Shown here: piece by piece, positions 63,199-63,898 of the stretch
Position numbering within the stretch: position 1 is the stretch's first letter
Layout of the letters: each line of letters opens with the position of its first letter
From: Escherichia coli
GTDB taxonomy: Bacteria; Pseudomonadota; Gammaproteobacteria; Enterobacterales; Enterobacteriaceae
Reading direction: 5' to 3' (one strand)
Length of the DNA stretch: 64,000 nucleotides
Assembly: GCF_024502345.1 (NCBI RefSeq)
Contig: NZ_JALDNN010000001.1
Translations under genes and position numbers: made by a program
Notes under the pieces: model-generated
Seen by the model: the letters and a program-made list of their open reading frames with translations, nothing else
Database searches by the model: none
Told to the model about the DNA's origin: nothing

Positions 63199-63251
63199 AA
63201 ATTAGCTTATAGGTTAATTCTACCTTGTCTGAAATTAGCCTATAGGTTAAT
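63199..63251 (+). repeat. two 20-bp direct repeats (aaattagcYtataggttaat) 33 bp apart, overlapping the toxin promoter: candidate operator sites
   Basis: 63199..63218 and 63232..63251 differ at one position. Confidence 0.6.
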
Positions 63252-63253
63252 AT
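63225..63253 (+). promoter_or_regulatory. putative sigma70 promoter of the toxin-antitoxin operon (-35 ttgtct, 17-bp spacer, -10 taatat)
   Basis: Hexamers at 63225..63230 and 63248..63253, about 20 bp upstream of the ggagg RBS. Confidence 0.5.
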
Positions 63254-63273
63254 TAATAGAAATGGGAGGTCAC

Positions 63274-63603
63274 ATGTTTAGCGTTGTTTATCACCCGGAA
63301 GCCAGGGAAGAAGCCACAGCATTACCCGTAAAAATCAGGGTGAAGTTTGACCGTCTCATCGGCAAACTGGAGTATGACGCCCGATTACTGCGGGAGCCGG
63401 ACACGAAGCCCCTGGGCGATGGACTTTTTGAGATCCGCACGATGGGGACGGACATAGCCAGGGGAATCTGGGTATACCACAAAGGCAATACCATCATCAT
63501 GCTCCGTGTTTTCATCAAGAAGTCACAGAAAACGCCAGCGAAAGAAATCGATCTCGCCAAAAAGCGGTTAGCGGAGGTACTTAATGAAACTGGTAAGCCA
63601 TAA
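63274..63603 (+). CDS. type II toxin, RelE/ParE-superfamily HigB-like (Gp49-type) mRNA interferase
   Basis: ORF 63262..63603; ATG 63274 four nt after ggagg gives 109-aa MFSVVYHPEAREEATALPVKIRVKFDRLIGKLEYDARLLREPDTKPLGDGLFEIRTMG...; toxin-first order with overlapping HTH partner. Confidence 0.7.
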   Translation: MFSVVYHPEAREEATALPVKIRVKFDRLIGKLEYDARLLREPDTKPLGDGLFEIRTMGTDIARGIWVYHKGNTIIMLRVFIKKSQKTPAKEIDLAKKRLAEVLNETGKP

Positions 63604-63865
63604 AGAACTGCATAACGAGTGGATGCAGGACGATGAATATCGCGCTGCATGGCAGGAAGAAGAACGTAAGGAAAAGCTCAGGGAGCTGCTTGCTGAATGG
63701 CGCAAGCATGACAACCTGACAAAAGCGCAGGTTGCTGAACGCATGGGGGTTACACCTCCGGTTATTTCTCGCCTGGAAAACAACATCACCAAAGCCAGCA
63801 TCGACACACTGACCCGCTACGCTCACGCCTGCGGCATCAAGAAACCTGTCATTGCCCTGTACTGA
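63584..63865 (+). CDS. HTH XRE-family antitoxin (HigA-like)
   Basis: 93-aa ORF overlapping toxin 3' end by 20 nt; C-terminal HTH ...LTKAQVAERMGVTPPVISRLENN... Confidence 0.7.
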   Translation: MKLVSHKELHNEWMQDDEYRAAWQEEERKEKLRELLAEWRKHDNLTKAQVAERMGVTPPVISRLENNITKASIDTLTRYAHACGIKKPVIALY

Positions 63866-63868
63866 ATA

Positions 63869-63898
63869 GCCAGCCCTCCGGGGCTGGCCTTTTTGTTT
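63869..63898 (+). terminator. intrinsic terminator after the antitoxin gene (gccagccc-tccg-gggctggc + ctttttgttt)
   Basis: 8-bp GC-rich stem, tetraloop, T-run, 3 nt after the stop codon. Confidence 0.8.

Follow-up and report, generated by a model that had tools for sequence, protein, structure and literature searches.

Closest described systems

In Klebsiella pneumoniae, the Gp49 toxin 14H is toxic in E. coli and is fully inhibited by the downstream-encoded 27P (Horesh et al., 2020, PMC7192599). The 14H/27P pair is the closest validated relative of a two-gene operon located at positions 63199-63898 of a 64,000-nt stretch of Escherichia coli DNA (hereafter, the window), which very probably represents an intact type II toxin-antitoxin (TA) operon of the Gp49/HigB-XRE/HigA kind, equivalent to Tad-Ata, with plasmid addiction as its native role and with an autorepressed promoter. 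In translation, 14H and 27P are 99% and 100% identical to a pair on the Klebsiella plasmid L003, and 63% and 52% identical to the toxin and antitoxin of the window. Both systems are plasmid-borne, with overlapping genes, the toxin gene first, and two upstream palindromes of the pattern TTARY-N6-RYTAA. However, the genes of 14H/27P overlap by 11 nt and those of the window by 20 nt; the 14H/27P operators are adjacent, with centres 17 bp apart and perfect 7-bp arms, whereas those of the window lie 33 bp apart and are imperfect. Further, 14H/27P belongs to a different plasmid lineage, found mainly in Klebsiella and represented by about 2000 records.

A more distant relative is the gp49/gp48 pair of phage N15, whose products are 43% and 37% identical to the window toxin and antitoxin, respectively, and which has the same gene order and gene sizes. 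The Pfam name Gp49 derives from N15 gp49, which together with the Tad-Ata modules of pAMI2 and SXT is a founding member of that family. Dziewit and colleagues are said to have described, in 2007, a stabilizing TA function of Tad-Ata modules. The N15 pair differs from that of the window in its upstream palindrome (TTTCACT-N4-AGTGAAA) and in residing on a prophage-plasmid, whereas the window pair is of IncF-type plasmid origin. N15 gp49/gp48 has been cited as a validated Tad-Ata-type module (PMC5906591, PMC8265657).

Among resistance plasmids, HigBA2 of Acinetobacter baumannii pAB120 and HigBA of IncC plasmids consist, like the window pair, of a Gp49-type toxin followed by an XRE antitoxin. These systems have been demonstrated to function in addiction, to possess RNase activity and to be autorepressed by the antitoxin and by the complex (PMC5906591, PMC8265657), and in the A. 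baumannii Gp49-type HigBA the autorepression exerted by the antitoxin is strengthened by the toxin (PMC5906591). Both are distant from the window pair (the IncC HigB is about 18% identical to the window toxin), and their promoters differ, that of IncC containing a putative SOS box.

Two systems of known structure are also related. HigBA of Streptococcus pneumoniae (6AF3/6AF4) is the best solved relative of both window proteins by sequence, and of the toxin also by fold, although identity is only about 23-26%, its toxin has 141 amino acids (aa) in place of 109, and its genes lie on the chromosome of a Gram-positive bacterium. Mycobacterium tuberculosis HigB1 (Rv1955, the toxin of a toxin-antitoxin-chaperone, or TAC, system; 7AWK, 7NBU) has the same fold and a pocket that can be aligned, at about 21% identity. 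HigB1 is a ribosome-dependent mRNA endonuclease that has been seen in the A site, 7NBU being the ribosome-bound structure (PMC9098466). It is part of a three-component system with a SecB-like chaperone, whereas a chaperone gene is not present at the window locus.

The classical HigBA systems of Rts1 (Proteus vulgaris) and E. coli K-12 are likewise toxin-first with an XRE-type antitoxin, and have two inverted-repeat operators. Their HigB toxin is placed in another Pfam family (HigB-like toxin) and has no detectable sequence similarity to the window toxin, whose Pfam match is to Gp49 only. Thus, the HigB label given in the original prediction holds in the broad sense of the Gp49/Tad subfamily, but not in that of the classical Rts1/K-12 HigB. 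In classical HigBA, the antitoxin binds operators that overlap the promoter (summarized in PMC5906591).

Gene organization of the window operon

The features expected of a Gp49/HigB-XRE/HigA operon that can be computed are all found in the window, namely the family profile, a fold with a long C-terminal helix, the catalytic pocket, a toxin-first arrangement with a coupled XRE gene, and palindromes over the promoter. The cassette is compact, spanning about 670 bp (63199-63865) with a terminator in addition, and its two genes overlap by exactly 20 nt (63584-63603). The variants mentioned here and below are six sequences of 90-97% DNA identity from plasmids with unrelated flanks, which were aligned with the window (seven sequences in all). 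The coding part of the operon is made up of the following features.

63264-63269, + strand: candidate Shine-Dalgarno sequence GGGAGG of the toxin gene, read from the sequence; invariant in the variants
63274-63603, + strand: toxin gene, ATG at 63274, stop codon at 63601-63603, 109 aa; Gp49-type HigB/Tad toxin of the RelE/ParE superfamily (RefSeq WP_000493286.1)
63573-63577, + strand: candidate Shine-Dalgarno sequence GGAGG of the antitoxin gene, read from the sequence; within the 3' end of the toxin gene
63584-63865, + strand: antitoxin gene, 93 aa; about 30 N-terminal aa precede an XRE/HTH_3 domain (residues 36-86) for DNA binding (RefSeq WP_000780222.1)
63869-63898, + strand: intrinsic terminator; G+C-rich hairpin (8-bp stem with 7 G-C pairs, 63869-63888) followed by the T run CTTTTTGTTT

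The toxin and helix-turn-helix (HTH) genes, their lengths, order and overlap, and the clean terminator behind them were thus located exactly where the original prediction had put them. Both start codons are those chosen in the RefSeq annotation. An alternative in-frame ATG at 63262 would add four residues to the toxin but overlaps the Shine-Dalgarno sequence; the start at 63274 is preferred because of the RefSeq annotation and the conserved MF.V N-terminus of the homologues. The order of toxin first and coupled XRE-HTH antitoxin second is the same in every relative fetched. A promoter scan of the + strand within the toxin gene returned no candidate for an internal antitoxin promoter at the threshold of 9/12 consensus positions or above.

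Toxin

The only Pfam match of the toxin is to Gp49 (PF05973; E=7.7e-23, model positions 4-89 of 90), and it also matches PHROG 2523 (E=6e-34). Its best sequence match in the PDB is chain A of 6AF3, the S. pneumoniae HigB-HigA complex. Similarly, a profile built from 72 diverse relatives, taken from 1,251 representative clusters, matched the 6AF3 HigB at 1e-18 and M. tuberculosis HigB1 at 2e-12, and had no match to ParE in the PDB. An AlphaFold2 model based on the same 72-sequence alignment (predicted local distance difference test score, pLDDT, 93.8) contains a strand at residues 3-6, helices at 8-15 and 19-34, four strands, and a helix at 89-106, i.e. a RelE-like fold with a long C-terminal helix. 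A long C-terminal (alpha-3) helix is typical of Gp49-like toxins (PMC9098466). In a Foldseek search with this model, S. pneumoniae HigB ranked first (6AF4/6AF3, TM-score 0.72-0.79), followed by M. tuberculosis HigB1 (7AWK/7NBU, 0.77-0.78) and then by RelE toxins, while ParE structures (E about 0.1, TM-score about 0.4-0.5) fell well below HigB and RelE. The RelE/ParE-fold, Gp49/HigB-type toxin that had been proposed from the sequence is therefore borne out, both by the Pfam match and by a fold nearest to solved HigB toxins.

The mRNA-cleavage pocket of HigB1 is formed by K58, E66, R68, N73, R77, K95, Q98 and K99, and toxicity is abolished by K95A as well as by other alanine changes (PMC9098466). 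Seven of these eight residues are kept in the profile alignment, in which K45, E53, R55, R63, K82, Q85 and K86 of the window toxin correspond to K58, E66, R68, R77, K95, Q98 and K99 of HigB1. In particular, position 95 of the crystallized K95A protein aligns with the conserved lysine of the motif F-x-K-K-x-Q-K-T-P. Across the 72 representatives, E53 is invariant, and R55, R63 and K82 are each conserved in at least 90%. The toxin is best read as a probable RelE/HigB-type ribosome-dependent mRNA endonuclease, as its sequence and its model suggest, and not as a ParE-type gyrase poison.

Antitoxin

The antitoxin matches Pfam HTH_3 over residues 36-86 (E=2.3e-13) and PHROG 1373 (E=1e-28), and its best matches in the PDB are the HigA antitoxins 6AF3_B, HigA2 (7EWC) and HigA3 (6LTY), in agreement with the HTH-XRE antitoxin originally proposed. 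Chains A and B of 6AF3, a single crystallized HigB-HigA complex, are the top solved relatives of the toxin and of the antitoxin, respectively. The approximately 30 N-terminal residues align among relatives, and this segment is presumed to be the toxin-binding part.

Control region

The region upstream of the toxin gene contains two repeats and a candidate promoter, as follows.

63199-63218, + strand: repeat 1 (putative operator O1), AAATTAGCTTATAGGTTAAT; core 16-bp imperfect palindrome TTAGCTTATAGGTTAA at 63202-63217
63225-63230, + strand: candidate -35 element TTGTCT, between the two repeats
63232-63251, + strand: repeat 2 (putative operator O2), AAATTAGCCTATAGGTTAAT; core TTAGCCTATAGGTTAA at 63235-63250; covers the promoter spacer and overlaps the -10 element
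63248-63253, + strand: candidate -10 element TAATAT, overlapping the last 4 nt of repeat 2

The two 20-bp repeats, predicted as direct repeats 33 bp apart around the promoter, are 19/20 identical with a start-to-start distance of 33 bp, and lie at the coordinates that had been given for them. Their 16-nt core, TTAGCYTATAGGTTAA, is absent elsewhere in the window even when up to three mismatches are allowed; the search gave four matches, namely the two sites read on each strand, where chance would give 0.71. Since both repeats match on both strands, each of them is an imperfect palindrome, O2 being self-complementary at 14 of its 16 positions. The sequence TTGTCT-17 nt-TAATAT matches the consensus at 8/12 positions, which is the tied best score in a full enumeration of the candidates in the 125 nt preceding the toxin gene; it shares this score with a candidate made up of the same -35 element and a -10 element displaced by one base. 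In the seven aligned sequences, the TTG of the -35 element is invariant, the -10 element is TAATAT, TAACAT or TAATGT (T1, A2 and T6 invariant), and the 17-nt spacer is free of insertions and deletions, while the distance from repeat 1 to the -35 element varies by +/-1 bp.

Homology between otherwise unrelated contexts opens exactly at repeat 1 (BLAST matches start at 63198-63201) and closes with the stop codon of the antitoxin gene, so that the segment from repeat 1 through the antitoxin gene is the unit preserved through reshuffling. Within O1, 14 of the 20 alignment columns are invariant over the seven sequences, compared with 8 of 105 in the upstream flank. Each repeat contains a TTARY-N6-RYTAA site, and in all variants of the window type the promoter has a pair of these sites, at about -72 and -39 relative to the ATG. 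The 14H/27P lineage has two as well, TTAGCTCTTGAGCTAA and TTAGCTTTTAAGCTAA, which abut at -64 and -47. N15-type relatives have no TTARY-N6-RYTAA/TTAGC sites and carry the palindrome TTTCACT-N4-AGTGAAA instead. The type of operator thus tracks the antitoxin lineage, as expected if the antitoxin reads the operator. Taken together, there is strong sequence evidence that the repeats are putative operators for autorepression of the promoter by the antitoxin. For this proposed function the comparative support comes from the palindromes of the same pattern in the homologous pair whose toxin is toxic and neutralized, and from the start of homology at repeat 1. The putative allele-specific feature of the window operon is its pair of imperfect palindromes spaced 33 bp apart, as opposed to the abutting perfect pair of the closest validated relative.

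Distribution and plasmid origin

A 901-bp query was found in 282 complete E. coli records, and 288 of the 302 places at which it occurs are on plasmids. On these approximately 280 records, the identical pair is annotated as a RelE/ParE-family toxin and an HTH protein. The exact proteins each occur on at least 1,000 contigs under generic names only, the antitoxin being labelled just 'helix-turn-helix protein', and toxin homologues were detected by tblastn on 3,749 plasmid records, mostly of Klebsiella and Escherichia. The IncFII plasmids L011 and L013 carry the cassette about 0.9 kb downstream of repA. The native role is most simply, and likely, plasmid addiction.

Within the toxin gene, 290 of 330 nt are invariant across the variants. 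Plasmid pESC818 (L016 1201-1622) carries a derivative in which about 207 nt have been lost inside the toxin gene, together with O1. O2 and the promoter are kept in it, as is the antitoxin gene, which is intact and now bears the annotation of a 105-aa HTH protein. Loss of the toxin with retention of the antitoxin is the pattern of decay expected if the toxin is active.

Other TA pairs are often found beside the cassette on the same plasmids, including CopG/RelE-ParE, PemIK and Phd-YefM/RelE-ParE pairs (L011 2347-2906; L001 1-591 and 3869-4440). This is TA clustering near replicons and transposons.

Alternative explanations

Several observations weigh against an active, autorepressed TA operon. 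HigB1 N73 has no clear counterpart in the window toxin, and the NCBIfam matches of both proteins are all far below the curated cut-offs, which leaves both without an applicable equivalog name. The symmetry of O1 is poorer than that of O2, with 12 of 16 positions self-complementary in the window and 8-12 of 16 in the variants. The spacing between O1 and O2 varies by +/-1 bp among the variants, and strict helical phasing is therefore not conserved. The promoter, at 8/12, is below the scan threshold and hence was not called; the proposed ttgtct/taatat promoter is nevertheless kept as weak but probable because of its tied best score and its conserved key positions. Further, no study of this exact pair, and no measurement of toxicity, neutralization, RNA cleavage or DNA binding for it, was found in the literature searched by accession and by Gp49, IncF and HigBA terms.

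The identity of the toxin admits two other readings. It could be a ParE-like gyrase poison in an otherwise unchanged operon, as its RefSeq name is only 'RelE/ParE family toxin', ParE toxins do appear in the fold search, and overexpression of the IncC HigB leads to cell elongation (PMC8265657). However, HigB and RelE ribonucleases head both the fold and the profile matches, the toxin keeps seven residues of the HigB1 RNA-cleavage pocket, among them the lysine altered in the inactivating K95A, and SOS induction was not seen in the IncC study (PMC8265657). On the fold and the pocket residues ParE identity was rejected, and it is regarded as very improbable. Alternatively, the pair could be a non-toxic regulator, with an inactive Gp49 protein and a repressor but no killing function. 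The Gp49-type HigB2 and HigB3 of M. tuberculosis are non-toxic when expressed (PMC9098466), and membership of the Gp49 family alone is therefore no proof of activity. Set against this are the intact catalytic pocket, the toxicity of the 63%-identical 14H, the strong conservation of the toxin gene across variants, and the natural derivative that lost the toxin and kept the antitoxin, as expected of an active toxin; a regulator of this kind is considered highly unlikely. The repeats, in turn, might be by-products of mobility, such as a scar left by recombination or duplication at the edge of the cassette, or sites for host or plasmid factors, with regulation residing elsewhere. The coincidence of repeat 1 with the exact left boundary of homology and the weak symmetry of O1 would fit this, the assignment of operators having been made from sequence. 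However, repeat 2 is internal and overlaps the -10 element, each repeat shows dyad symmetry in the 16-bp format that is usual for HTH dimers, and the toxin-deleted derivative retains O2 alongside the antitoxin gene. In addition, 14H/27P has palindromes of the same pattern in another arrangement, which a duplication scar would not reproduce, and the N15-type relatives, with diverged antitoxins, carry a different palindrome. A non-operator origin of the repeats is thus judged quite unlikely, if slightly less so than the two readings of the toxin above.

It is also conceivable, though unlikely, that the chromosomal pair serves mainly as an abortive-infection (anti-phage) or stress-response module and not in addiction. 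TA modules in general can work in this way, and Gp49 homologues occur in temperate phages such as N15 and phiKO2. Searches of PADLOC-DB 2.0 gave weak, partial matches to the C-terminal part of NsnC (positions 230-282 of 293, 4e-6), to HTH_VI (5e-11) and to CapH (1e-5), but no full-length match to any catalogued defence system, and filing the pair as a catalogued anti-phage defence system was rejected on the grounds that these matches are only partial. No support was obtained for the role in phage defence suggested in the original prediction. Moreover, the distribution is overwhelmingly plasmid-borne, beside replicons, and the chromosomal copy is 100% identical to plasmid copies, which suggests that it was acquired recently and passively with insertion sequence (IS) elements. 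A role in defence or stress, if there is one, would not exclude the explanation preferred here, a plasmid-addiction TA operon with an autorepressed promoter.

Genomic setting

The window is part of an E. coli chromosome, its lsr operon region sharing 99% identity with many strains. The features upstream of the cassette are as follows.

60856-61695: truncated IS5/IS903-type transposase open reading frame
61807-62253: C-terminal third of an IS110-family transposase
62883-63198, + strand: plasmid-derived leader segment, with a remnant resembling IncFII repA4/oriR-flanking DNA at about 62883-62985 and a conserved hairpin motif at about 63097-63130

From 62883/62897 to its end, the window is 99.8% identical to plasmids pECO-6357 and pBone2IncF (L001 and L002). 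More than 6,000 E. coli plasmid records contain a sequence, on some of them annotated as 'replication-associated protein RepA4', to which the segment 62883-62985 has about 85% identity; by this resemblance the segment is a putative IncFII replication-region remnant now in the chromosome. The IS fragments at 60856-62253 are debris at the junction of a chromosomal island and the plasmid-derived piece. In E. coli 2273-PO3 the same arrangement (IS110 fragment, TA pair, ISKpn26) lies within an IS26 mosaic, and in other genomes the same piece is flanked by IS5/ISKpn26 and IS26. The cassette region is probably a fragment of IncF-type plasmid DNA brought into the chromosome in an IS mosaic. The original placement of the operon at the edge of a mosaic mobile region therefore stands, and can be refined: the mosaic is plasmid-derived, with an IncFII repA4 remnant and IS fragments, and plasmid addiction is the likely native role.

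The hairpin motif at 63097-63130, GCCGCCTT(A/C)CATGC(C)GCT(A/G)ACG(C/T)G(G)CAT, is found again, at 114-177 nt before the toxin ATG, in a number of contexts that are otherwise unrelated (L001 8000, L002 1297, L006 1350, L008 and L009 1500, L011 and L013 1459, L014 9000), and even precedes an N15-type Gp49 pair of 42% identity carried by a Shigella boydii plasmid. The possibility of a dedicated cassette-mobility site was considered and dropped, the flank resembling the IncFII repA4 region common to thousands of plasmids; the motif probably belongs to the IncFII replicon neighbourhood, to judge by this resemblance.

Between the IS110 fragment and the plasmid-derived segment lies a perfect 20-bp inverted repeat (62785-62829; aatccctcgatggctaacag / ctgttagccatcgagggatt). 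Its loop has 5 nt, it lacks a T run, and it might be an IS end or another IS-associated RNA structure. It is covered by a weak Rfam match to HgcC (32 bits against a cut-off of 50) that is probably due to chance. An Rfam search of 60000-64000 gave nothing above the gathering score, HgcC and two microRNA families being taken as chance matches, and did not point to an RNA antitoxin or a riboswitch in that interval. Just downstream of the terminator there are two 17-nt direct repeats, CAAGTTTAAAATGTCAC (63925-63941) and CAAAGTTGAAATGTCAC (63951-63967), 26 bp apart. The last position of the window is 64000; on plasmids there are about 75 nt more of this sequence, up to an IS5/ISKpn26 insertion.

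Further upstream, the window encodes a 459-aa protein with a HipA N-terminal domain (57112-58491), which as a HipA-like kinase toxin represents a second TA type, and after it a 464-aa tyrosine-recombinase-like protein (58739-60133). A gene of the ECSE_1600 autotransporter family (53215-56694) adjoins these two genes. The HipA/recombinase stretch is only about 94% identical to its best E. coli matches, and is therefore a variable island.

Proposed mechanism

In the mechanism proposed for this operon, the weak sigma-70 promoter TTGTCT-17-TAATAT would give rise to a single bicistronic mRNA, on which the antitoxin would be translated from its own Shine-Dalgarno sequence within the end of the toxin gene. 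The predicted activity of the toxin is that of a RelE-like ribosome-dependent mRNA endonuclease, cutting codons in the A site and so halting translation, and the antitoxin would neutralize it through the N-terminal segment. An antitoxin dimer, through its HTH domain, may bind the 16-bp palindromes O1 and O2 (TTARY-N6-RYTAA). Antitoxin dimers or the TA complex on O2 would cover the promoter spacer and the first four bases of the -10 element and thereby block RNA polymerase; O1, just upstream of the -35 element and about three helical turns from O2, could provide a second, probably cooperative, site for the antitoxin or the complex. The native role would be post-segregational killing that stabilizes IncF-type and other enterobacterial plasmids, and the copy in the window would be a plasmid fragment brought into the E. 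coli chromosome by IS elements.

Implications

The allele appears to be without experimental characterization, although it belongs to a well-known family that annotation pipelines recognize. In a preprint on the transcriptome of enterotoxigenic E. coli, a plasmid 'gp49', possibly this toxin gene, is mentioned as upregulated in fresh water. The value of the finding as a discovery is small, as the pair is already annotated as a toxin and an HTH protein, homologues are present on thousands of enterobacterial plasmids, and a close relative has been validated.

A speculative, and on present judgement improbable, extension is that the two operator layouts encode different regulatory logics, for example DNA looping or cooperativity dependent on the toxin ratio, or that the chromosomal copy has been co-opted for phage defence. 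If the logics did differ, the family would offer a natural pair of 'operator geometry' variants for the study of conditional cooperativity. Many of the enterobacterial plasmids that carry homologues also bear resistance genes, and the operator/promoter map, with its two TTARY-N6-RYTAA sites, may serve as a hypothesis for studies on the stability or curing of IncF and Klebsiella resistance plasmids.

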